DNA of 64,000 bases from a virus. The notes under the pieces are model-generated. The model was not told the origin of the DNA and made no database searches. It saw only the letters and a program-made list of their open reading frames with translations. Positions 7,311-62,974 of this stretch are shown piece after piece. The position numbers were made by a program, and so were the translations under genes. The stretch's first letter is position 1. Each line of letters starts with the position of its first letter. The stretch spans positions 1-64,000 of IMG/VR virus record IMGVR_UViG_3300044658_000058; one strand, 5' to 3'.

Positions 7311-8516
7311 CTAAACGGGCTCATAAATCTTGAGCCAATCGAGGATCATATCACATGGAAACACGGCATCCGAAGTTGGAGAGCCGGGCCATGAGCCACC
7401 CATAGCGATATTCAGAAGAATATACCAAGATTGTCCCGGCGATCTATTTTCCATGACGATTGTTTTTACACCATCGAAATCGAAAATAATTTCTTCATCG
7501 GTTATGCTTATTCCGTACACATGAAAATCTGTCAAATCCGTTACATTAGGGATACCAAGCAATCTGATATCGAGAGGATATCCAAGTGCCAGTGGTGAAT
7601 TGGTTGTGGAAGTCCAATGTTGTGTAGAATAGTATGTCCACGCATTTGCATTCGAATTAATCGGCCATTCCATCATATCGATTTCTGGTGGCCATGCTCC
7701 ATTAGTCGGCATTAGCCAAAATGCTGGCCAAGCACCACGCTTGCCAAGCACAGGCATGGCCAGACGACATTCTACACGACTGCCGGGAGCGGCGGTTTTG
7801 AGCGTTCTCGACGTGATCATGGATGCCGTGTAATTCCACGATCTATTGCTGTATGTTAGAGGCGTAGTCAATTTCTCGGAACGCAACACACGCTTTCCGT
7901 TAACGACTGGAAAAGGATTCGTACCGGGGAACACGACCGGATCGGCATAAAGACCCAATTCCTTGTTTCCGTCCTGTGTTCTGCCATGTGCCGGGCGTGA
8001 TTGCCAACATGGAGTCCCATCCGGAAGGAAGCCAGTGTCACTAAACTGGAAACCGTTTACAAAATCCGTTTGGAATGCGAGCTTGTAACCGCTGGAAACG
8101 ACTTGTTGTGGGTTTAGGCTGAACGTTATCCACCCACTCGATTTCGCCACGGATGCCCCTGTGATCGCTTTCAAATAGACTTCGATAGTCTTGCCTTCGG
8201 CATTATTACCCCTAAGCTGGATAACAATTTCTTGTTCGGTCTTATCGCCCGGCTGGAAAACGAAGCCGCCATTAGAGGCGATGTAGTTGGTTCCTTGATT
8301 GGTGCCGGTTCCATTACGTGTCTGGAATGAGCCTATGACGGTATCACGTGGTGTGCCGGTCAAAGAAAGCTTTAGACGGGCTTCCGTAGCAGTTGGCAAT
8401 ACGGTAACGTCAGCCAATGAGATTGTAATGGGAGCGACGGAATCGGTAAGGAAATCCATCAGTCTCGGGTTAATCTCTATCAATTTACGGGTATCTGTGG
8501 AGGCGAGACGTTTCAT
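7311..8516 (-). CDS. GH16 glycoside hydrolase with N-terminal Calx-beta-like domain
   Basis: WPAFWL...WPPEIDMME (EXDXXE catalytic motif), DFHVYG, LNIAMGGSWPG. Confidence 0.85.
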   Translation of the reverse strand: MKRLASTDTRKLIEINPRLMDFLTDSVAPITISLADVTVLPTATEARLKLSLTGTPRDTVIGSFQTRNGTGTNQGTNYIASNGGFVFQPGDKTEQEIVIQLRGNNAEGKTIEVYLKAITGASVAKSSGWITFSLNPQQVVSSGYKLAFQTDFVNGFQFSDTGFLPDGTPCWQSRPAHGRTQDGNKELGLYADPVVFPGTNPFPVVNGKRVLRSEKLTTPLTYSNRSWNYTASMITSRTLKTAAPGSRVECRLAMPVLGKRGAWPAFWLMPTNGAWPPEIDMMEWPINSNANAWTYYSTQHWTSTTNSPLALGYPLDIRLLGIPNVTDLTDFHVYGISITDEEIIFDFDGVKTIVMENRSPGQSWYILLNIAMGGSWPGSPTSDAVFPCDMILDWLKIYEPV

Positions 8517-13136: not shown

Positions 13137-14471
13137 TTAGCAACCCTTGTTCTTTTTCATCATAGCCTTTGCAAGTGCCATGCCTCTTTCACGTTTTCCA
13201 ATGGTTCTATTGGCTCTTGAACGTGCCTTGTCATCGTCGAGATAATCTGCACCGCCACGATCAATGTGAGCGTTGGCCTTGGAAATCCATGCTTTCTTGT
13301 CGTAATTGGTCATGGTCTGTGCTGACAATTCGTCAAGTCGTTCGACTTCTTCTTTCAAGCCGTGATATTCTTTCCAACGGTTCAAATGACGATCAAGCTG
13401 GCCCTTTGTGTCACCATGACCGGGAGCCATGATGCCATTCTTTTGCTTATTGCGAGAATGCCAGCTTTCCGGAGCACCCTTCTGTTGCCATACATGAACC
13501 TTGCCGCCTGTAGTTGGATGTTCATATGTGTGGGCAGGAAAATCGTGATCACGACCGCCAAGGCTCTTTTCAGTGTGTGAACCCTTGTAGACATAGCCAT
13601 GCGAAGCAAGAACCTTATTGAACTTATGCTTTGGTTCAGTTTCTTCGTTCAGTTCGATTTCCTCTTTGTGGAGGATTTTCTGTAGAACAGCGCCAGCTAC
13701 ACGCTTTCCAGCTTCCTTGGAACCATATTCCTTGGCAGCTTTCGCAGCGACTTTCTTGAAGTTCAGACCGGGCTTGCCAATGTCTTCACCCTTTTTGAAT
13801 TCTTCCAATGGCTCAACAGATTCAGCAAGCTTCGAAACGATGTTCGCTACTTTCTTGTGTGGAACGACATGGCCACGATAGTTTTCCATCGAAGCACGAA
13901 CGCCGTTTGTTACCAAGCGATACTTTTTGCCGCCATGAGAAACAACATGTTCTGACCAGCCATCATGACGCTTCTGTGTGGCACCAGCATGAATTTTCTT
14001 TAGATATTCCTGTGAATCTTCATTCAACATGGAAAGTTCGCTTTCCAGACGTTCAACCTTCTCTTCCAAAGTTTCCTTACGGGCCGGACGCCAGTTGCGC
14101 TTGCCTTGATTTGTGAGAATGGATGCAATAGAGTCGGTTGACTCATTGATGATCAAAGGTTTCTCTTCCACCTTGTTCAGGCGAACGGTCGAAGCGATTT
14201 CTCTAAGGCTCTTTTGTGGAGCCTTGGTTTCAGTGATGATCGGAGCCGCAGGCTTCTTTTCTTCCACAATTTCCCATGGGGCTCTCTTTGGAGTCAAAGC
14301 AGATGCCACACCGGAAATGTCCTTGACGGTTTCCTTTGTTGGTTCCTTGTAGGCAGCAAGGCGAGAGGCAAGCTCTTCACTGATTACCGGTTCATCCTTC
14401 TTAGGACGTGCAGTTTCCAGAAGCCCTTTCTTAAGAGCTTCTGCCAATTTATCTTTGCCTCTGTAATTCAT
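13137..14471 (-). CDS. Putative head/core polyprotein with multiple gp21-type cleavage sites
   Basis: Repeated [ILV]xE sites; EEIELNE and EEVERLDELS linkers between basic modules. Confidence 0.65.
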   Translation of the reverse strand: MNYRGKDKLAEALKKGLLETARPKKDEPVISEELASRLAAYKEPTKETVKDISGVASALTPKRAPWEIVEEKKPAAPIITETKAPQKSLREIASTVRLNKVEEKPLIINESTDSIASILTNQGKRNWRPARKETLEEKVERLESELSMLNEDSQEYLKKIHAGATQKRHDGWSEHVVSHGGKKYRLVTNGVRASMENYRGHVVPHKKVANIVSKLAESVEPLEEFKKGEDIGKPGLNFKKVAAKAAKEYGSKEAGKRVAGAVLQKILHKEEIELNEETEPKHKFNKVLASHGYVYKGSHTEKSLGGRDHDFPAHTYEHPTTGGKVHVWQQKGAPESWHSRNKQKNGIMAPGHGDTKGQLDRHLNRWKEYHGLKEEVERLDELSAQTMTNYDKKAWISKANAHIDRGGADYLDDDKARSRANRTIGKRERGMALAKAMMKKNKGC

Positions 14472-14483
14472 TTGTGCCTTTCC

Positions 14484-15062
14484 TTAGACGATTACGAACG
14501 TCGAAAGTGTATTAGAAACCGTGGCTGAAATGTTTGTGTTAACGGTTTCGGTCGTGCCAGAGAACGTGCTGTACACCTTCGCCTGTGCAGTGTTCGATAG
14601 ATTCTGTGCCTGAATTTTATATGTACCGGCAGTTGCTACCTTGAACTTGAATACCAATGTATTGTTGGCATTTGTGATCGAAGCCTTATTGGTGTTCGAT
14701 GTTGCAACTACGTTGTTTCCGCCAGCGGTGTTCGCTACAGTCAAACGGAACGGAGAGGCCGACGCACCGATAGAAAGTTCTTCTGTGAACACGACGTAAG
14801 CGAAATTCACCTGATTTTTCTTAAGAGCCGTGCCACCAGTCGTGTTGGCAACATAAACCTGTGCAACCTTTGGCTTACCCATAAGGGCATCGCTAGGAAG
14901 ATTACCGATGGCTACCAGCGGTTCATACTTGTTTCTAACGTTACCATGAACGTCGGTGTATGTGATTCTGCGAGTCCAACCGAACTTGGTTGCGACGATA
15001 TTTCTTTTTTGGTCCTGTGACACATAAAGTGGCACCTTACCAGATTTGTTCCAAAGTGACAT
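14484..15062 (-). CDS. Virion structural protein (MSLW family)
   Basis: Start reassigned to MSLWNK at 15062; late promoter upstream; beta-rich. Confidence 0.65.
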   Translation of the reverse strand: MSLWNKSGKVPLYVSQDQKRNIVATKFGWTRRITYTDVHGNVRNKYEPLVAIGNLPSDALMGKPKVAQVYVANTTGGTALKKNQVNFAYVVFTEELSIGASASPFRLTVANTAGGNNVVATSNTNKASITNANNTLVFKFKVATAGTYKIQAQNLSNTAQAKVYSTFSGTTETVNTNISATVSNTLSTFVIV

Positions 15063-15114
15063 GTATTTGATTCCCTTTTCGTTTTTTAAACTACTCAACA
15101 TGATGTAGACCCAA

Positions 15115-15122
15115 TATTTATA
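15115..15122 (-). promoter_or_regulatory. T4-type late promoter
   Basis: TATAAATA. Confidence 0.65.
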
Positions 15123-15133
15123 AAAAATGGGTA

Positions 15134-15162
15134 TTGACATGAGAGGCGGGAATCGTCATATT
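15134..15162 (+). promoter_or_regulatory. Sigma70-type promoter
   Basis: TTGACA-N17-CATATT. Confidence 0.55.
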
Positions 15163-15185: not shown

Positions 15186-15875
15186 ATGAAGCTTTATCAC
15201 GGAACGAATGAAACGGTAGCGAGGGTGGCCCTTACCGAAGGGCTCAAACCCCGTTCCATGACCAAAGCATCGAATTGGAAACACACGGTTCTGTCACATA
15301 AGGATATGATCTATCTGACAGATACCTATCCTCTTTATTTCGCCTTGAATTCCATTCAGGGAACGGAGCGGGCGGCTGTCATAGAAATTGACACCGACAA
15401 GCTGCTTCCTTGGGAATTCATGCCCGACGAGGATTACCTTGAACAGGCGACACGCAAAACCCCCGATGATCCCAAGACCGATTGGGACATGAAAAAGCGC
15501 AATCGCTGGTATCGTGCAAGATTGCAACAGTTCTCGGGATATTGGGAAGAGTCGTTGAAACGACTTGGAACGTGTGCCTACCACGGTATAATCGGTCCAC
15601 AAGCGATCACTCGGGTAGCGTTCATCGACTACAAAAAGCAATCGGTCTTAGCCATGAGAGGAATGGACCCATCCATTTCGATTGTGAACTTTGGCCTTTG
15701 TTCAAAAGATTATCAACATCTCATTCCGTGGCTGTTCGACGGCACATATGAGCCGACAGAGCGGGACGGGATGCTGATGAAACTTGGGTTTCCTTCCACC
15801 AAGGAAGTTCTTGAAAAGGAAGGTAGAGCGGGGATTTCAATCGAAATTCCAAATTTGAAAAAGGAAGACGCATGA
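15186..15875 (+). CDS. ADP-ribosyltransferase-fold protein
   Basis: LYHGT...GLKP...IYLT...YFA...AVIEID...PDED. Confidence 0.6.
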   Translation: MKLYHGTNETVARVALTEGLKPRSMTKASNWKHTVLSHKDMIYLTDTYPLYFALNSIQGTERAAVIEIDTDKLLPWEFMPDEDYLEQATRKTPDDPKTDWDMKKRNRWYRARLQQFSGYWEESLKRLGTCAYHGIIGPQAITRVAFIDYKKQSVLAMRGMDPSISIVNFGLCSKDYQHLIPWLFDGTYEPTERDGMLMKLGFPSTKEVLEKEGRAGISIEIPNLKKEDA

Positions 15876-16594
15876 AAATGAGAAATTTTGGATTAGCCGT
15901 GGCAGCAATTGCGCTGCTTACGGCAGGCAACGCCTATGCGGCTGATGCCATTGTCGAACAGCCGGTTGTGGCAACGACCTATGATTGGTCGGGACTCTAT
16001 GTCTTGGGTGAAGGCGGCTATGGTTGGGGAGATTCCGATCATGAACACCAGAACGTGAACACGTTCGGTGGACCGGGCGGCACCTATTCCAATGACGGCA
16101 ATGGCTTCGTCGGCGGCGTTGCGGTCGGCTACAATGTGGCATTCACCAACGGTTTCGTGATCGGCGTCGAAGGCGCAATTCGTTCCGGCCAAAAACTGGA
16201 TGATGGCGGCGAGTTCGAAATTTATCACAACTCGACCACGACCAAATCGAAATATGTGGCCACGGTCGCCGGACGGGCTGGATATGCATTCGGAAGCTTC
16301 CTGCCATACGTCAAGGCGGGTTGGGCCGGGGCAGATGTGGAGTCGACCCAGAATTACCATCCGGTCGGCCTTCCAGAAACCACATGGAGCGATTCCAAGT
16401 TCCTGAACGGGTTCGTGGTCGGGGCTGGCGTCGATTATGCCGTGACCGACAGAATTTTCGTCGGCGTCGAATACAACTACGTTGACTTCGGCAAGAAAAC
16501 GTTCGAAGGGCTAGACTCCAACGGGACGCTGACAAAGATTTCCGGCAATTTGCGGGAACAAACCGTTATGGCACGGGTTGGTATCAAGTTCTAA
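15872..16594 (+). CDS. Omp25/RopB-family outer-membrane beta-barrel protein
   Basis: Signal peptide AYAAD, YDWSGLY, GRAGYAF, GAGVDYA, C-terminal Phe. Confidence 0.88.
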   Translation: MKMRNFGLAVAAIALLTAGNAYAADAIVEQPVVATTYDWSGLYVLGEGGYGWGDSDHEHQNVNTFGGPGGTYSNDGNGFVGGVAVGYNVAFTNGFVIGVEGAIRSGQKLDDGGEFEIYHNSTTTKSKYVATVAGRAGYAFGSFLPYVKAGWAGADVESTQNYHPVGLPETTWSDSKFLNGFVVGAGVDYAVTDRIFVGVEYNYVDFGKKTFEGLDSNGTLTKISGNLREQTVMARVGIKF

Positions 16595-55616: not shown

Positions 55617-56996
55617 TTAGACAAGATTTTTTACGACAAAACCTCTGTAATATGAGTTCTTCTTGTTCACGTGGATAGCGCCGTCCGCTGCCGATGTGGC
55701 GAATGGGTGAGCAACCATGCCGTAACGTGTCTTGAAGCCAATCTTAGGCTGGAAAGTATCCTGACCTACGGCACGGTACATCTGCAATGGGATGTATGGG
55801 CAGTAGAACATACCGGCGTCGAATGACGAAGTACCCTTGTAACCAACTACGGCAATCTGATTGCCCGCAGAAGAGTTCGCATATGGGTCAATGTAAACCT
55901 TGTACTGGCCGAACAGAGTACCAGCGAAGGTGTTACCAGTGTCGTCAACTTCAAGAGTTTCCTTCTGCATTGCAGACTGGTAGTCGAGATAGCCAGCCAT
56001 ACGGAAGGCAGACGCTACGTCTGACGAGCAGAGAACGAAGTTACCCTTACCACGACGGGTTGCCTTGGCAATGGCGTTAGCTTCACGTTCGATCTGGAAC
56101 AGAAGACCCTTGAACTTTTCAACCATCCAACGACCGTTTGAGTCAACGTCAAGGTCGTAATAACCAGCGGTCGCTACGTTGTCCTGTGCACCGATTGTAG
56201 CGGTTGCATAGATGGAACGGATAACCTGACGGTTAATTTCGGCAAGAATTTCCGAAGAAAGGATGTTCGAAAGTTCTGTTTCAGCGTCCAAACCGTGCAC
56301 GGCCTTCAAGTCCTGTGCAAGTTCGTGTGAGTATTCAGCCTTCAAAGCACGGGACATTGCTGTCACCGAAATCTTTTCAATGCTGAATGACATTTCTTGG
56401 AACTGGTTAGTTGAGTTAGAACCCAGACCTTCCGCAGTTGTTCTTGTCATACCGGTAGCGAATGTGTAAGCAGTGTTACCAGTTGTGATAAGCAACGTTG
56501 GGTCAGTACCAGTCTGCGCACCACCAACCGAAGTCAACTGTGCAGTGTTACCCGCAGCCGAAGCCGACCAGTTAGTTAGAGGTTCGTTGAAGAGAGCTTC
56601 CGTACCTGTCTGATTCTGGTAACGAGAACGCAACGCAAAGATCAAACCAGTAGGCAATGTCATTGGCTGAACGCCGCAAAGATCGTAAGCGATCAAGTTT
56701 GGCATCGAACGACGGATCAACGAAATCAACACAGGGTCATAAGTATCGATAGCGCCGTCACCAGCGTTCGAAGAAGATGCACCCATAGAGTTTGTTGGTG
56801 AAGTTGGAGCCGCTTCAAGCAAGTAAGTCAAAGACTGAGTCTTGTCACGGGCAACCGTTTCCATGTTGGCCTTCAACTGATTTTCCAGAAGAATCGCAAC
56901 AGTCGAACGACGGTGCGAGTCTCTGATCTTTGGAAGGTCTTCATGGTCAAGGACCGGAGCCCACTTTTCCATCAATGTATTGATATCGTATTCCAT
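55617..56996 (-). CDS. 23: Major capsid protein gp23
   Basis: KWAPVL, DPVLISLIRR, GVQPM, EILAEINR, FQPKIGFKTRYG. Confidence 0.98.
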   Translation of the reverse strand: MEYDINTLMEKWAPVLDHEDLPKIRDSHRRSTVAILLENQLKANMETVARDKTQSLTYLLEAAPTSPTNSMGASSSNAGDGAIDTYDPVLISLIRRSMPNLIAYDLCGVQPMTLPTGLIFALRSRYQNQTGTEALFNEPLTNWSASAAGNTAQLTSVGGAQTGTDPTLLITTGNTAYTFATGMTRTTAEGLGSNSTNQFQEMSFSIEKISVTAMSRALKAEYSHELAQDLKAVHGLDAETELSNILSSEILAEINRQVIRSIYATATIGAQDNVATAGYYDLDVDSNGRWMVEKFKGLLFQIEREANAIAKATRRGKGNFVLCSSDVASAFRMAGYLDYQSAMQKETLEVDDTGNTFAGTLFGQYKVYIDPYANSSAGNQIAVVGYKGTSSFDAGMFYCPYIPLQMYRAVGQDTFQPKIGFKTRYGMVAHPFATSAADGAIHVNKKNSYYRGFVVKNLV

Positions 56997-57042: not shown

Positions 57043-58290
57043 TTAGCGATTTTTACGAAGAGTCTTGGTCATAGAAGCTGCAATTACCTGACCGACTGGA
57101 TTTACATCCTTAACCGGAGAGGCATCTACTTCTTCTGTAATCACAACAGGTTCATCGTCGGCATCAATAGAAGTCTTCTTCACGTCCTTAGCGAAATAAG
57201 ATTCTTTCAAATCTTTAATCTGGCTAACGAAATCGTCTTCGTCTTCGAATTCAATGCCTTCTGCGAGCATAACTAGACGTTCTTTCTGATTTGCAGAAAG
57301 ACCATCAACATGTTCCATTACCAATGCAGTCTTCTTTGACTCATTAAGTTCGTTTGCAAGAGCAACGTTCTTATTGATTTCTTCGTCAAGAGAAGCTTCA
57401 AGTGTGCCAACACGGGCCACAAGTTCTTCAACAATATCTACTTTTTCATCTGGAATTTCGATATAGTGTTCTTCGAACAAGTTCTTCAAACCAACAAGGA
57501 ATGATTCAGCAATTTCGGTACGAACGTTAGACTGAATTTCAACCTTATTTTCTTCAAGCCATTCAGAAACAACCTTATCAAGGTAGTCGTCCATCTTTTC
57601 TACAAGATTTTCGACGAATACTTCCTGATCTTTTTCGTTCTGTTCAAGAATCTGTTCAACAACTTCCGAGATAACTTCGTTAGCAGCCGCAATTACAGCA
57701 GTTTCGAAGATATTCTTTGTCTTTTCTTTGAACGATTCGGTCAAATCTTCCTTGCCAAGCAAGGCTTCAAGGTGTTCAGCAACGTCCAAATCTTCCTTGG
57801 TTACTTTGCGAACCTTGATATCAACTTCGTTGCCGCCGTTGTCATCAGAATCATCGTCGTCGCCTGAGTCGTCATCCGAGCCCGCTGCATCGGCTGGCTT
57901 CTTGATCTTGACTTCCTTACCGGCGTTGTCGTCATCCTGTGAATCGTCGTTGTCATTATCCACATCATCGTTCATGTCTTCATCGGCATTACCTTCACCG
58001 ATCACAGAAGCTTTATTCTTCTGCTTGAATTTCTTGTGGTTGATGTCTTTCTGATTGTCGTTCTTTGCAGCGTCAATACCAGCTTCGATCTTTGAATTGT
58101 CAGCGGCTACGTTATCAACGTCGCCCGGAAGGTCTGGACCAGTTTTCTTAAGGTCTTTCTTAGCTGGAACGTTCTTACGCTTGTCGAAAACAACTTCTGG
58201 AACTTCCGAAACCTTGTCGTCTGACTTGAAAGCTTCTTCAAGAGCCTTTTCTTTTACTGACTTTTTGATTTCATTCAAAAGCTTTGACAT
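57043..58290 (-). CDS. 22: Prohead scaffold gp22
   Basis: FKEK...IFETAV, DDYL, EW.EEN, GLKNLFEEHYI..P, KESYF. Confidence 0.92.
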   Translation of the reverse strand: MSKLLNEIKKSVKEKALEEAFKSDDKVSEVPEVVFDKRKNVPAKKDLKKTGPDLPGDVDNVAADNSKIEAGIDAAKNDNQKDINHKKFKQKNKASVIGEGNADEDMNDDVDNDNDDSQDDDNAGKEVKIKKPADAAGSDDDSGDDDDSDDNGGNEVDIKVRKVTKEDLDVAEHLEALLGKEDLTESFKEKTKNIFETAVIAAANEVISEVVEQILEQNEKDQEVFVENLVEKMDDYLDKVVSEWLEENKVEIQSNVRTEIAESFLVGLKNLFEEHYIEIPDEKVDIVEELVARVGTLEASLDEEINKNVALANELNESKKTALVMEHVDGLSANQKERLVMLAEGIEFEDEDDFVSQIKDLKESYFAKDVKKTSIDADDEPVVITEEVDASPVKDVNPVGQVIAASMTKTLRKNR

Positions 58291-58355: not shown

Positions 58356-59000
58356 TTAAGATTTGAGAAACTTAGAAAAAGCGTTAAGGAACTGCTTTTC
58401 ACGAAGCTCTCTGTTCTTCACTGTTTTGATTGTCTGAATTTCTTCAACAATACGTTCTTTCTTCTGCCATTCGACGCCATCGAAAATCCATTCGACGCCT
58501 TCAACCAATGACTCGACAAAGCATCCCGGTCCCGATGGTTCGGCCACGATATCAACTGTCATGAGCTTGAAATCCGGCTGAACGACTTTGAGGCCATTCG
58601 ATTCCTTGATCGAACCAAGGCCACGGCTGGACACGCCAAGGCGAATACCTTCGTCAAGGAAGGTCTTTGCGATCTTGCCGCATGGGGTATCGAGAATCTT
58701 CGCCTTGCCGAACACGATGTTTTCGTTCATCGTCAACTGAGTGATGATGTGCGATACACGGTCGAGATTAAGGGTTGGGTTCGATGGATGACCCAATTCG
58801 CCCATGGCACGATTTTCAGAGATAATCTGTGCGTAACGGCCCAACTCACCTTCAAGAACAGAACGTGGGTAAACACGCTTGTTTCCATTCAAAGTTTCTG
58901 CAACCATGAATGGACCTTTAATGAAGTATTGTTTGATCCCGTCTTTTTCTTCTTTCAGAAGTTCGATAGATTCGTTAAGTTCTTCGGTAAGTAAAAGCAT
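58356..59000 (-). CDS. 21: Prohead protease gp21
   Basis: GELGHP, VSH, GVSSRGLGS, DIVAEPS. Confidence 0.95.
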   Translation of the reverse strand: MLLLTEELNESIELLKEEKDGIKQYFIKGPFMVAETLNGNKRVYPRSVLEGELGRYAQIISENRAMGELGHPSNPTLNLDRVSHIITQLTMNENIVFGKAKILDTPCGKIAKTFLDEGIRLGVSSRGLGSIKESNGLKVVQPDFKLMTVDIVAEPSGPGCFVESLVEGVEWIFDGVEWQKKERIVEEIQTIKTVKNRELREKQFLNAFSKFLKS

Positions 59001-59006
59001 TCTTGT

Positions 59007-59483
59007 TTAGCAACTCTTTACGTGTTTATCCCACTCTGTTTCTTTCGGAGTGGCTTTCATGATCATATTTTTCCATGAGCGATCTTTGTCCGCAGCGGAA
59101 CGACGCTTTTTGTTAACAACGAAGGTTGTGAAAGTCTTACCTTTACGAGAAGTCGAGATAGTGTGAGCGCCCATGTCTTCTGAAACCGGCTCTACTTCTT
59201 CCTTTGCAACTTGCTTATTGCCCGAGGACATTGTAGAAACAGCCTTCTTATTCTTGATCTTTTCAGGAGTTTTGTTCTGAATGTTATCTTTGATATTGGC
59301 GTTAGCAAAAGCTACTTTGTCTTCGTCTCTATCTGCTTCTGTACTTTCTTCGAATACTTCTGGTGCAACTTCGGAAGCAACAGCTTCACAAATGTTGCTT
59401 GCCTTTTCAGCCAACTTAGCTCTTACGTCATCGAAAAATTTAGATGGTGCGCCTTCCATAAGGCTGATAAGTGATTTCTTCAT
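59007..59483 (-). CDS. Prohead core protein candidate
   Basis: Lies between genes 20 and 21; LME and EEVEPVSE sites. Confidence 0.6.
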   Translation of the reverse strand: MKKSLISLMEGAPSKFFDDVRAKLAEKASNICEAVASEVAPEVFEESTEADRDEDKVAFANANIKDNIQNKTPEKIKNKKAVSTMSSGNKQVAKEEVEPVSEDMGAHTISTSRKGKTFTTFVVNKKRRSAADKDRSWKNMIMKATPKETEWDKHVKSC

Positions 59484-59488
59484 TGTTA

Positions 59489-60616
59489 TTAATCCTTTGT
59501 TATTTTATCTACAGCTTTCGCCATGTATTTTCGACGTTGCCAACTCTTTTCAAAGAACTTGTCAGCCAACTTACTGTCCTTTTCGCCTTGCTGATAATTG
59601 GCGTAATTTTTATTCTTTATTTCATCACGCACACGATTTGCACGATCACCATAGCGACCGGTAGCCGCTGATCGTGTTGCTACATCGTGAGAAGCTTTCT
59701 TGATATAGTCGCCAAGTTTAGCTTTCGACAATTCGTCAAGCTGTTCTACTTCCTCTTTTACTGGCTTCTTTGAACCACCATGACCTTTCAGCAAAGAATG
59801 AATAAGTTTGCTTTCTTTCTTACCAATACGGCGACCGGCTCTATTCGATGACTCGATAGATTTGTTCACTGCATCTGCATTGTATTCGGCTTCTTCTAGT
59901 TCAATCTCTTCTTTTACTGCCTTATTTTTTCTACCAAGAGTATTGAGTCCTTTTACTCTATTCGAGAATTTCTTATCTGTGTTGTGACTTTTACCGTCAT
60001 AACGAAGAATTTGAGTTTCTGCATGATCTTTATATTTTGCCAATTTTTCTTGTGACAATTCGTCAAGCTGTTCTACTTCCTCTTTGACAGTCTTCTTTTT
60101 GCCAGAGAAAAGAGCTTTAAGCTTTGCACGACGTTCTTTCCTCTTTTCCTGTGCTTTTTCATAGGAATCGACGCCTGAACCATAAAAATTTGTTGCGACC
60201 GCAATGTCTTTCATCATACCTTCGTCAATGCTTTCAGAGCGAAGCGCACGTTCGTTGGTCGTGTATGTCTTGCCGACAAAATTTGTGTTCTTTGGACTCT
60301 TCGAAGCAGCGAAGTCGTTCAACTGATTGTAGGCGTCACGATCATCCGGACGCTTGATGTTTTTGATACGAGCGTCTTTCCTCTTCTTTGGCTTCGTTAC
60401 ATCACCGGTTAATTCATCCGTATCATCTTCGACCGAAACGTTATCGAGATGTTGCTTCATCATGGCCTTGTGGCCGGGAGTCATTTCGTTCAGGAGAGAT
60501 TCCGTAAGATTTTCTGCCATATCCGCAATGACGGACTCTGCCTTTTCTGTGAGAGAATCGGTCAATGGGGTGAAATCACCCTTCAACAAATCGAGAATGT
60601 TTTGTGTTTTGATCAT
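59489..60616 (-). CDS. Prohead core (gp67 position) polyprotein
   Basis: Core-like N-terminus, then modules separated by KEEVEQLDELS (twice) and KEEIELEE. Confidence 0.7.
   Translation of the reverse strand: MIKTQNILDLLKGDFTPLTDSLTEKAESVIADMAENLTESLLNEMTPGHKAMMKQHLDNVSVEDDTDELTGDVTKPKKRKDARIKNIKRPDDRDAYNQLNDFAASKSPKNTNFVGKTYTTNERALRSESIDEGMMKDIAVATNFYGSGVDSYEKAQEKRKERRAKLKALFSGKKKTVKEEVEQLDELSQEKLAKYKDHAETQILRYDGKSHNTDKKFSNRVKGLNTLGRKNKAVKEEIELEEAEYNADAVNKSIESSNRAGRRIGKKESKLIHSLLKGHGGSKKPVKEEVEQLDELSKAKLGDYIKKASHDVATRSAATGRYGDRANRVRDEIKNKNYANYQQGEKDSKLADKFFEKSWQRRKYMAKAVDKITKD
59727..60085. repeat. 32-bp perfect direct repeat (59727-59758 and 60054-60085)
   Basis: GACAATTCGTCAAGCTGTTCTACTTCCTCTTT; 28/32 copy at 13324-13355. 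Confidence 0.9.
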
Positions 60617-60660
60617 TTAAGTATCCTATATTGTTCAAAATATTTATGAAAATAAGGATT

Positions 60661-62364
60661 TTAGCTAAACCATCTCTGCTTTGGGTTAGCGTTGTCCTCT
60701 TTGTCGTCGGAACCTTCATCCATGCCGTCTTGGCCCGGCATTCCACCAGCATCTTGACCGGCTGGACCGCCGAATTGATCACCACCACCGAAGCCGCCGC
60801 CGAATTGGTCACCGCCGAAGCCTCCATCCATACCCATGCCGCCGCCGAAGCCTGACATCTGGTACTCGGGCTCTTCATCAATTTCTTTCTTGATTTGAAT
60901 CCATTCTTCTTCCGACATGCGAAGTACGTTGGTACGAACCCAAGTCTGTGAATAGAATTTACCGATATACGGTTCGATATCACGCAAGTTTGATATGCGA
61001 GATTGCATGATTTCGCCTTCTTTCAATTCGGTAAAGAAGTTGTTTTCATGCCATGTGATGATAATGTCGTCTTTATACTTGTCCCATTCTGTTGAAGTTA
61101 GAATGGATTTCAAAATCAACTGGTCGCCAAGAATGTCTAGAAATACTTCTGCGAAACGTGAACGGAGGCGATTTACAAAATCGGAAAATTTCACTTCATC
61201 ACGGGAAATTTCGGATGGACGCCCAATATTGAAACCACCTTCTGAATCGAGGCGGCCAATTGGAACTTCCAAGGCTTCGTAAAGCTTCTTTTTGAAGTAT
61301 TCAACGTCGGTAATCTGACCAAGATTTTCACCGGCTGGCAGAGTTTCGACAGTCGTTCCCTTACCGTCACGTTGTGGGAACCAAAAATCTTCCAACATGG
61401 TGGCAATACGTTTGTCATCTGAAACCTGTCCTGTTTCCGGATCGAATTTCAGCTTCTTATTGTGCTTGCGCATGATTTCAGCCACATACTGTTCGGCTTT
61501 CATCTTCGGCAAGTTGCCAACTTCGATATTGAAAATTCTTCTTTCTGGTGCACGGGCGATACGATAGATGACCACGGCATCTTCCATCATGCGGAGCGTG
61601 TTGTACGCCTTGATCGCCTTATGAAGATTTGAGAGGATCATCGTGTTGTCGTTATTGCGAATGCCCGAGTGGACATAGGTAATCGAGTTTGGGGAAATCG
61701 GAATACCCTGTGGATTCTTACGGTTCACCCCTTGACTATTGTATACGAAGTATTCGATATACTTTTTGTTTACTTCCAAACTATTGGTGATAATGTTGGC
61801 GTAGCTTGGAACACGCTTGTTGTTCTTTACAAGCTCTTTAACTTTTTTGATTTTACGTGGATCAACATTACGGAGTTCATAGATTCCGTTTGTCGGATCA
61901 TTTTCGTCGATCATTTTATGATAATAGATACGACCATCCACATACCATTGGCGGAAAATATTGTAACAATCTTTCTTGAAGTTCATCATCTTCAAGATGG
62001 CATCAAATTCCTTTTTGATGGCGTGACGAGTGTTTTCCCCGATATCGATCTTTTGCGTATCAATATCGACTGGACCAGTAGGAGAAGTATAGTCAAAGGC
62101 TTCATTGATGATGTCTTGGATAGCCTTGTCTACTTCCTGTTGTTCGGAAAGAAGTCTATATTTGGAGATAAGAGCGGCTTCATCGACGGTAGAATTGTCG
62201 AGAGCAACGCCATAATTGTAAAAACCAGATGCATTGGAACCAATTTCCAATGCACCATCGTTATCATTCTTTTCGATAACTTGAAGTGTTGACGCTTCAC
62301 GTATCCTACGTTCTTCGTCAACACCTTTATTCAGCTTATAGCCAAAGAATCTATTCATTACCAT
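60661..62364 (-). CDS. 20: Portal vertex protein gp20
   Basis: WYVDGR, DPRK, EDAVVIYRIARAPERR, MLEDFW. Confidence 0.97.
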   Translation of the reverse strand: MVMNRFFGYKLNKGVDEERRIREASTLQVIEKNDNDGALEIGSNASGFYNYGVALDNSTVDEAALISKYRLLSEQQEVDKAIQDIINEAFDYTSPTGPVDIDTQKIDIGENTRHAIKKEFDAILKMMNFKKDCYNIFRQWYVDGRIYYHKMIDENDPTNGIYELRNVDPRKIKKVKELVKNNKRVPSYANIITNSLEVNKKYIEYFVYNSQGVNRKNPQGIPISPNSITYVHSGIRNNDNTMILSNLHKAIKAYNTLRMMEDAVVIYRIARAPERRIFNIEVGNLPKMKAEQYVAEIMRKHNKKLKFDPETGQVSDDKRIATMLEDFWFPQRDGKGTTVETLPAGENLGQITDVEYFKKKLYEALEVPIGRLDSEGGFNIGRPSEISRDEVKFSDFVNRLRSRFAEVFLDILGDQLILKSILTSTEWDKYKDDIIITWHENNFFTELKEGEIMQSRISNLRDIEPYIGKFYSQTWVRTNVLRMSEEEWIQIKKEIDEEPEYQMSGFGGGMGMDGGFGGDQFGGGFGGGDQFGGPAGQDAGGMPGQDGMDEGSDDKEDNANPKQRWFS

Positions 62365-62413: not shown

Positions 62414-62974
62414 TTAGATATCAGTACCGCCAGCGAAGCCAGTTGTGCTTTGATCACCAGATGTCCAGTAGTCAACGGAGAACGTCACCGGATAGCTGAT
62501 AACGTCATCCTGTCCCCAATCCATGCCGATAGCACCAACAGAGATAGGCCAAATACCGTTGAACTTGTATTCACGAAGAACGTTGCCATTCTGTGAGTAC
62601 AAAGTAACGTCAGCAATAGACTTGTATAGAGTCTGTTCAGAAGTTGGGAGTCTTCTAATGTTGCCAATTGGAGAGTTGATTGAGTTTACCCATTCTTCCA
62701 TTGCGTTACGGATCAAATGATCTTCATCACCAATGATTGTAACTTCCCAATCGGAATAGTTCTGGGTTACACCAGCAACCTTGATCGCACGACCGAAGTA
62801 ATTAACCGCAATAGGGTTTGTGTCCTTCTGTGGAACGTTGGTTGCACGGCAAAGGAATGGAAGAACCGAGTCAGCCTGTCCGTTTACCGGGTTGGTGATT
62901 TTCACCTGAAAGAGGTTCGTTCTTGCGCCACCATAACGGAGAGCCGAACGGAATGAGTTGATATTAAAAGCCAT
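62414..62974 (-). CDS. 19: Tail tube protein gp19
   Basis: GGARTNLF, YFGR.IK.AG, WP..VGAI..DW. Confidence 0.93.
   Translation of the reverse strand: MAFNINSFRSALRYGGARTNLFQVKITNPVNGQADSVLPFLCRATNVPQKDTNPIAVNYFGRAIKVAGVTQNYSDWEVTIIGDEDHLIRNAMEEWVNSINSPIGNIRRLPTSEQTLYKSIADVTLYSQNGNVLREYKFNGIWPISVGAIGMDWGQDDVISYPVTFSVDYWTSGDQSTTGFAGGTDI

Follow-up and report, generated by a model that had tools for sequence, protein, structure and literature searches.

Internal head proteins are the earliest phage proteins to reach a new host, and in T4 all three of them block restriction systems. To our knowledge, almost nothing besides DNA has been described inside the capsids of T4-like phages that lie outside the T-even group. 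In T4, the protease gp21 follows an L/I-X-E rule, cutting after the Glu, and it cuts gp67 and gp68 into several fragments each (PMC9026906). The cargo set of the T-even internal proteins varies between related phages (PMC3012670, PMC9026906), and T4 Ip1-3 are injected inhibitors of GmrSD-type restriction (PMC12373910). Here we describe gene X, a modular gene of a T4-like phage represented by IMG/VR virus record IMGVR_UViG_3300044658_000058. The DNA that we analysed, called the window below, is the first 64 kb of this 153-kb record, for which completeness is estimated at ~85%. Pfam and PHROG scans of the window place X in a T4-type head gene cluster on the minus strand, in the order gp19-gp20-X-Y-gp21-gp22-gp23. 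X and its neighbour Y lie between gp20 and gp21, in the slot of T4 genes 67 and 68, which are expressed with the head genes. A preliminary description of the window had called X core-like, in agreement with this prohead-core position, and the reading frame is as given there (59489-60616, minus strand, 375 aa). We consider it fairly probable that X encodes a protease-processed prohead-core cargo polyprotein. Sequence comparison makes it probable that X is an array of cargo for the capsid interior that can be reshuffled, because close relatives hold the same peptides in a different order.

(L/I)-x-E-type motifs occur in X at residues 44, 132, 186, 242 and 295, and these are the boundaries given in the preliminary description: LLNE ends at residue 44 and SIDE at residue 132, the final Glu of KEEVEQLDE/LS falls at residues 186 and 295, and that of KEEIELEE/A at residue 242. 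They split the protein, from its N-terminus, into the leader, the N-core and modules D, A, B and C (Table 1). The protein had been described as carrying five basic modules, which holds for D, A and B (pI 9.1-9.3, net charge +2 to +3) and for C (pI 9.9, net charge +10), but not for the second piece at residues 45-132, which has a pI of 8.0 and is close to neutral; the acidic leader has a pI of 4.1. AlphaFold2 (AF2) predicts helical modules in full-length X, with predicted local distance difference test (pLDDT) scores below 50 at residues 172-188, 223-237 and 277-293, that is, in the linkers. The N-core has 54 invariant columns among seven orthologues, and its residues 61-131 are mostly without regular structure in the AF2 prediction. 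Alignment shows that a leader of ~47 residues ending in (L/F)-x-E is common to X, to Y and to a third gene found in two related contigs, L002 and L004; a hidden Markov model (HMM) search of the phage's own genome found the leader only in X and Y.

Evidence for an array comes from seven close homologues of X, two of which come from viral contigs (L002/L003 and L004) whose synteny is identical; orthologous proteins P0003-P0008 belong to the same comparison. The seven share the leader and N-core and then differ in module content and order. Starting from the N-core (N), the order is N-D-A-B-C in the window, N-C-A in L002, N-new-D-new-A in L004, N-A-x-C in P0004, N-A-C in P0005, N-z-C in P0007 and N-B-w-C in P0008. 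Module C is last in the window and first in L002, with 85% protein identity between the two copies, and module A is the second module in the window and the last in both L002 and L004. Homology blocks found by blastn stop at nucleotides 384/388, 531, 639-644, 695 and 868, all of which are linkers. The shuffled blocks retain 75-85% DNA identity, compared with 78-81% for the N-core; since these values are similar, the modules were rearranged within the lineage, not freshly imported. The surrounding genes are closely related, with portal proteins 95% and 80% identical in the two relatives and flanking portal and capsid proteins 80-97% identical overall. The order gp19-gp20-X-Y-(Z)-gp21-gp22-gp23 is common to the window, L002 and L004. 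Y of L002 has an extra C-like module inserted at its EEVE linker, whereas Y of L004 has a different insert, and the third leader-bearing gene carries a D-like module as cargo in L002 and a phrog_23785 domain in L004. Module exchange between relatives, which the preliminary description had proposed from the window, is thus supported by the orthologue alignment, in which content and order differ and the breakpoints fall in linkers. As a separate observation, the cargo of the third gene of L004 (7705-8148) matches phrog_23785, a family of unassigned function, with an E value of 4e-12, so that a folded domain appears as capsid cargo in one relative only.

The linkers also resemble protease sites. 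In a motif count anchored solely on residues downstream of the putative cut, P1 was Glu at 336 of 337 module starts (Asp once), P3 was Leu, Ile, Val or Met at all 337, and P2 was mostly Asp. In the targeting sequence of T4 internal proteins, an Asp at the processing position blocks the cut. As far as the motif goes, then, the suggestion that the linker could double as a gp21 site has held up, with a match to L/I-X-E in which P1 and P3 are essentially invariant. The motif also precedes first modules that directly follow an N-terminus of only 7-24 residues, as in proteins that read ...LNE and then LSKKTL; Caulobacter phage Cr30 gp064 and Prochlorococcus phage P-TIM68 gp159 are built in this way. 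In gp23 of the phage described here, LLE/AA stands where the T4 gp23 propeptide is cut. Finally, a stand-alone copy of module B in Rhizobium phage RHph_Y1_11 consists of Met followed by AEYN..., the residues that come after LEE in X, and so begins at the predicted cut. Processing at the linkers would fit the motif, the gp23 site and the stand-alone module B alike.

Module C connects X with a large family. Searching with phmmer, we obtained 725 clusters at 50% identity (E<=1e-3), of which 215 were found at E<=1e-10; the family proteins are 102-1379 aa long and contain one to eight copies each. Residues 296-375 of X match the family HMM with an E value of 1.2e-39 and carry its signature of ~80 residues, LS-x-x-TL-x-x-Y...ASHD...KSWKRR-x-GI-x-KA-x-DKLTK after an acidic (L/I)-D-E. 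The family is unnamed, overlaps phrog_5709 and has so far been seen only in T4-like phages, where module C is 60-70% identical across phages of many environments. An AF2 model built with 40 homologues is an antiparallel two-helix hairpin (pLDDT 88), with helices at positions 12-48 and 55-88 of the 89-aa query and the eleven linker residues as its sole weak part. When this model was compared with the PDB in Foldseek, all hits were helical hairpins of a generic kind, Mediator Med11/22, the seryl-tRNA synthetase arm and AcrA among them, each with an E value of at least 1, and we do not interpret them.

Some parts of the family proteins outside module C recur. Many module-C proteins (P0011, P0014, P0035, P0139 and P0146; L014, L037, L045 and others) have a conserved N-terminal region with an EF-hand-like loop, D-x-N-x-N-G-K-[IV]-D-x-x-D-F, and a second type of loop, D-A-D-I-D-N-D-G-D, also occurs; it is possible that these are Ca-binding cargo or targeting parts. 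DUF3008 (PF11450) is a further array module in P0029, P0093, P0099 and P0106 and in L010 (3518-5134; P-RSM6 CPXG_00114). In P-RSM6 it forms the N-terminal unit of a 538-aa basic protein adjoining the small terminase gene.

Several relatives tie the module to the interior of the capsid. Module C stands behind a phrog_1064 (T4 gp67 family) N-terminus in P0183, P0199, L042, L058 and L084 (E 3e-5 to 2e-10); in P0114 a complete gp22 scaffold protein comes after it. An IPIII-type start, M[KR]x[FYWL]xx[FYWL][LIV]xE, was found in 33 of 281 family proteins (12%) and in none of 219 control open reading frames (ORFs). MKKFKEFINE is one such start, and T4 IPIII itself (MKTYQEFIAE) matches the pattern. In the T4 capsid targeting sequence (CTS), positions 4 and 7 serve targeting and positions 8 and 10 processing (PMC9026906). 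X, which starts MIKTQNILDL and has the 44-residue leader, does not match the pattern, nor does any ORF of the 153-kb record. T4-type head genes flank 21 of the 80 viral loci that contain the module, with the gene mostly between gp20 and gp21, and Gp23 is encoded in five of the five other contigs tested. The Y homologue in L026 matches phrog_14164, a family also matched by L058 and L084 alongside phrog_1064, which makes a weak transitive chain to gp67. With the module behind gp67, gp22 or an IPIII-like CTS in relatives, the proposed capsid targeting gains support. Separately, in L087/L088 (5632-6459) a module-C match follows the protease gene and is N-terminal in a probable scaffold gene, as in P0114.

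Together, these comparisons suggest how X might work. The 44-residue helical leader, which X has in common with Y, would bring X into the scaffolding core during head assembly. A gp21-type protease, judging by the motif and by the relatives, would cut after the Glu of the (L/I)-x-E motif at the end of the leader, of the N-core and of each module, and cutting would yield peptides of ~53-88 residues, among them several basic helical units. Once the DNA is packaged, module C would most likely remain with it as an internal peptide that neutralises charge or organises the DNA, and it may enter the host with the DNA. The comparison above shows that recombination at near-identical linker tracts has changed the order of modules between close relatives and has added and removed modules. 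An acidic peptide that hardly varies stands before each module and is written in codons of low degeneracy, so that short near-identical DNA tracts lie at every module border.

In X, the two KEEVEQLDELS linkers contain a perfect 32-bp direct repeat, as the preliminary description had pointed out; it encodes KEEVEQLDEL in ten identical codons and extends two nucleotides into the Ser codon. Identity is lower in the flanks (81% over 68 nt), and modules A and C, which follow the two copies, are otherwise dissimilar. No match like it arose in 100 shuffles. The reported near copy is also present, KEEVERLDELS in the gene at 13137-14471, with three mismatches in 21 nt at 13329-13349. We regard it as quite possible, if short of probable, that this identity has no role of its own, being either the residue of a conserved peptide in biased two-fold codons or the product of one recent local gene conversion, with module turnover left to ordinary illegitimate or short-homology recombination. 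Of the Glu codons in this phage, 86% are GAA, and a conserved Glu/Lys-rich peptide in such two-fold codons yields near-identical tracts of 20-30 nt, enough to seed exchange. Only about one family gene in three has an exact intragenic repeat of 18 nt or more. Across the family, codon sharing among intragenic linkers (observed/expected 1.22) is no higher than in the adjacent module start (1.39), so there is no sign of selection for DNA identity. On the other hand, the chance of ten identical codons out of ten for the same peptide under the codon usage of this phage is ~7e-4, and these codons include the rare GAG (14%) and GTA (18%); all mapped homology breakpoints in X and Y are at linkers; and the exact intragenic repeats, when translated and inspected, nearly all encode linker peptides. 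The claim that the linker is a recombination handle is therefore upheld in that breakpoints fall there, but not in that linker DNA identity is specially maintained, and special conservation of linker DNA across the family was dropped as a general claim. On these sequences the handle looks like a by-product and not a selected feature, and the perfect 32 bp in X are most readily interpreted as left behind by a recent event of conversion or junction formation. Elsewhere in the family, the gene at L049 4621-6414 has exact intragenic repeats of 118 nt and 113 nt, 167 codons apart, which suggest a very recent tandem duplication of a two-module unit.

Besides the codon counts, several observations weigh against a processed and packaged cargo polyprotein. 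The leader aligned with T4 gp67 in hhalign at a probability of only 0.35% as a single sequence and 0.93% as a four-sequence profile. P1' is here a bulky residue, Leu or Ile, as against Ala at the T4 sites checked. The acidic stretch and the following LS-KK-TL-GSY are conserved as one unit, which could thus be a structural N-terminal domain cap instead of a processing signal. In T4, the head loses most of the fragments of gp22, gp67 and gp68 (PMC9026906), so it cannot be taken for granted that the peptides of X are retained or delivered. The conservation of module C, moreover, fits a housekeeping function better than an arms-race effector, which tells against the anti-defence role that had been suggested for the modules as far as this one is concerned.

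Some of these points would be expected if X were cleaved but served as scaffold only, like T4 gp67, gp68 and gp22, taking part in core building and sizing, with its fragments expelled before DNA packaging and none delivered. The shared slot with T4 genes 67 and 68, the exit of the T4 fragments, the N-core as the most conserved part, the fusion of module C to gp67-like and gp22 proteins and the suitability of a highly conserved module C for a structural role all speak for such a scaffold. We nonetheless find it unlikely. Close relatives with capsid genes 94-97% identical do without some of the modules and hold others in another order, which would be unexpected of parts that determine head geometry; in many cases the carrier is a separate gene with an IP-type CTS, distant from the head cluster, as are the retained T4 internal proteins; and a net charge of +10 favours retention with the DNA. 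Less likely still is an uncleaved beads-on-a-string internal or DNA-binding protein, in which EEVEQLDELS would be a spacer or helix cap and (L/I)-x-E incidental in a Glu-rich linker: the conserved unit, the P1' residue and the density of (L/I)xE sites (1.9 per 100 residues in X versus 4.1 in gp22) are in its favour, but P1 and P3 are stricter than a spacer requires, the same motif follows N-termini of 7-13 residues where there is nothing to space, the N-termini of CTS and gp67 type in relatives imply that these proteins meet the protease inside the prohead, and the linkers combine low AF2 confidence with a cut position at which the stand-alone module B begins.

Module C, strongly basic and conserved, suits a general DNA-associated role in the head better than that of an arms-race effector. 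Should it be a core peptide that condenses DNA and is freed by a maturation protease, the basic core peptides of adenovirus, which are protease-released, would be comparable in principle. The variable cargos, by analogy, could be effectors in the manner of T4 Ip1-3, with module B, the phrog_23785 domain, DUF3008 and the EF-hand-like pieces as candidates. The stand-alone module B of RHph_Y1_11 is an unannotated 42-aa ORF (L006 4992-5120; tblastn E 2e-4, 61.5% identity) that fills the gap between EVC30_092 and EVC30_093 (MN988558.1, ~58052-58180) and overlaps both at its ends. Module B was not found among proteins of 25-81 aa or in the ESM Atlas. A wider proposal, which we offer as tentative and somewhat on the unlikely side, is that T4-like phages of non-enteric hosts (soil, freshwater and marine) share a capsid-cargo polyprotein system in which the linker is both protease site and crossover point at which cargos are swapped, stacked and reordered between genes and genomes, and in which some cargos, such as module B, also a free early-region gene in an unrelated Rhizobium phage, are co-injected host-takeover or anti-defence effectors.

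Table 1. Positions of gene X, its parts and other features in the 64-kb window.
Feature	Position	Strand	Basis or remark
Gene X, candidate modular polyprotein of the prohead core, 375 aa (parts in the rows below)	59489-60616	minus	ORF
Leader, residues 1-44, acidic, helical, ends LLNE	60485-60616	minus	AF2 helix 16-44 stops at E44
N-core, residues 45-132, ends SIDE	60221-60484	minus	Most conserved part among orthologues
Module D, residues 133-186	60059-60220	minus	Homologous block in L004 X, residues 173-230
Module A, residues 187-242, ends in degenerate linker KEEIELEE (59891-59914)	59891-60058	minus	Block DNA identity 79-85%
Module B, residues 243-295	59732-59890	minus	Stand-alone copy in Rhizobium phage RHph_Y1_11
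Module C, residues 296-375, net charge +10, predicted helical hairpin	59492-59731	minus	AF2, phmmer
32-bp perfect repeat, copy 1	60054-60085	minus	Linker KEEVEQLDEL
32-bp perfect repeat, copy 2	59727-59758	minus	Linker KEEVEQLDEL
Putative late promoter CATAAATA, 7/8 matches to T4 late-promoter box TATAAATA	60641-60648	minus	24 nt upstream of X ATG, then AGGA; read from sequence
gp19 tail tube	62414-62974	minus	Position and similarity to orthologous loci
gp20 portal protein	60661-62364	minus	PF07230, E 2.2e-156
Gene Y, 158 aa, X-type leader, one EEVE linker	59007-59483	minus	ORF, alignment
gp21-type prohead protease (Peptidase_S77)	58356-59000	minus	Pfam E 1.2e-26, phrog_207 E 1.9e-65
gp22-type scaffold protein	57043-58290	minus	PF25623, E 5.5e-57
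gp23 major capsid protein	55617-56996	minus	Pfam/PHROG scans
P0001, second modular gene, 444 aa, linkers KEEIELNEE and KEEVERLDELS, divergent C-type end module	13137-14471	minus	Near copy of the repeat

Database scans gave X and Y little by way of annotation. In Pfam, X had no curated domain above the gathering score, Vir_act_alpha_C being sub-threshold (19.4 bits against a cut-off of 22.4 bits); in PHROG, X and Y matched no family, and X compared with phrog_5709 gave no match at E<=0.01. The N-core yielded nothing usable from either collection, and tblastn of Y against cultured phages found no match.

Cr30 gp064 and P-TIM68 gp159 each lie downstream of a cytidyltransferase gene, and P0001 was considered as their equivalent by position. 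We found no support for this: the gene upstream of P0001 has no such match, and the similarity is confined to one module at a pairwise E value of 0.001. Upstream of P0001, a perfect TATAAATA lies at 15115-15122 on the minus strand, 18 nt inside the listed start of the ORF at 14484-15140; the real start of this ORF may be further downstream, and the ORF and P0001 may be a pair of late genes.

Elsewhere in the window, the portal protein ends in a long Gly/Met/Asp-rich low-complexity tail (60661-60840; GFGGGMGMDGGFGG...), which is also present, at varying length, in L002 and L004. The gp22-type protein has a long Asp/Asn/Ser-rich acidic insert at residues ~100-165 (57750-58000), before the T4_CASP domain, and its N-terminus, MSKLLNE, repeats the LLNE found at the end of the X leader. 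Away from the head genes are a gene for an outer-membrane beta-barrel protein at 15872-16594 on the plus strand (PF13505, E 2e-19) and one for a Calx-beta and glycosyl hydrolase 16 protein at 7311-8516 on the minus strand.

If our reading of X is true, uncultured T4-like phages could be searched for cargo by a sequence rule drawn from the X locus and the 725-cluster family: leader or CTS first, an (L/I)-D-E/LS linker next, and a module after it. The locus would also suggest a polyprotein route to packaging several cargos at fixed stoichiometry. X is, in addition, a concrete case of domain shuffling at a repeated linker, testable in the cultured carriers Cr30, P-TIM68 and P-RSM6.

Among described proteins, T4 gp67 and gp68 share the slot of X, gp67 having a helical N-terminal part and then a charged tail and gp68 ending in a very basic tail. 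They are much smaller, however (80 and 141 aa versus 375 aa), and they lack the conserved N-core and the four permutable modules with a repeated linker. X and Y gave no HMM or profile match to gp67 (phrog_1064) or gp68 (phrog_1049), the search for gp68 covering X, Y and the N-core at E<=1. The T-even internal proteins IPI, IPII, IPIII and Alt have the layout that we propose for X, a conserved targeting peptide that ends in (L/I)-x-E and is removed by gp21, followed by diverse cargo. They differ in carrying one cargo per gene, whereas X would carry several in one reading frame, each with its own putative site; in a CTS of 10-19 residues as opposed to a leader of 44; and in hypervariable cargo, where the dominant cargo, module C, is highly conserved.

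In giant phages (phiKZ gp175 substrates, 201phi2-1 and SPN3US), many internal head proteins are likewise cut at short motifs that end in Glu; a protein may have several such sites, and paralogous families occur (PMC9026906, PMC5694885, PMC7411985). These belong to another lineage and motif context, and they lose propeptides but are not described as interchangeable module arrays with a repeated linker. Another relative is phrog_5709, the Cr30 gp064 family, which has the same type of module and linkers; Cr30 gp064 itself begins with an 8-residue peptide ending in LAE, after which comes ISKKTL. This family is unannotated and lies at a different genome location from X, and we found in the literature no functional data on it, no description of the module family and no virion proteomics for Cr30 or another carrier. 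Precedents exist for diverse internal proteins and targeting peptides, for processing by gp21 and for core proteins that are cleaved at several places. New, in that we found no description of them in the literature, are the multi-cargo polyprotein with a repeated linker, its reshuffling between close relatives and the large unnamed module family to which module C belongs.

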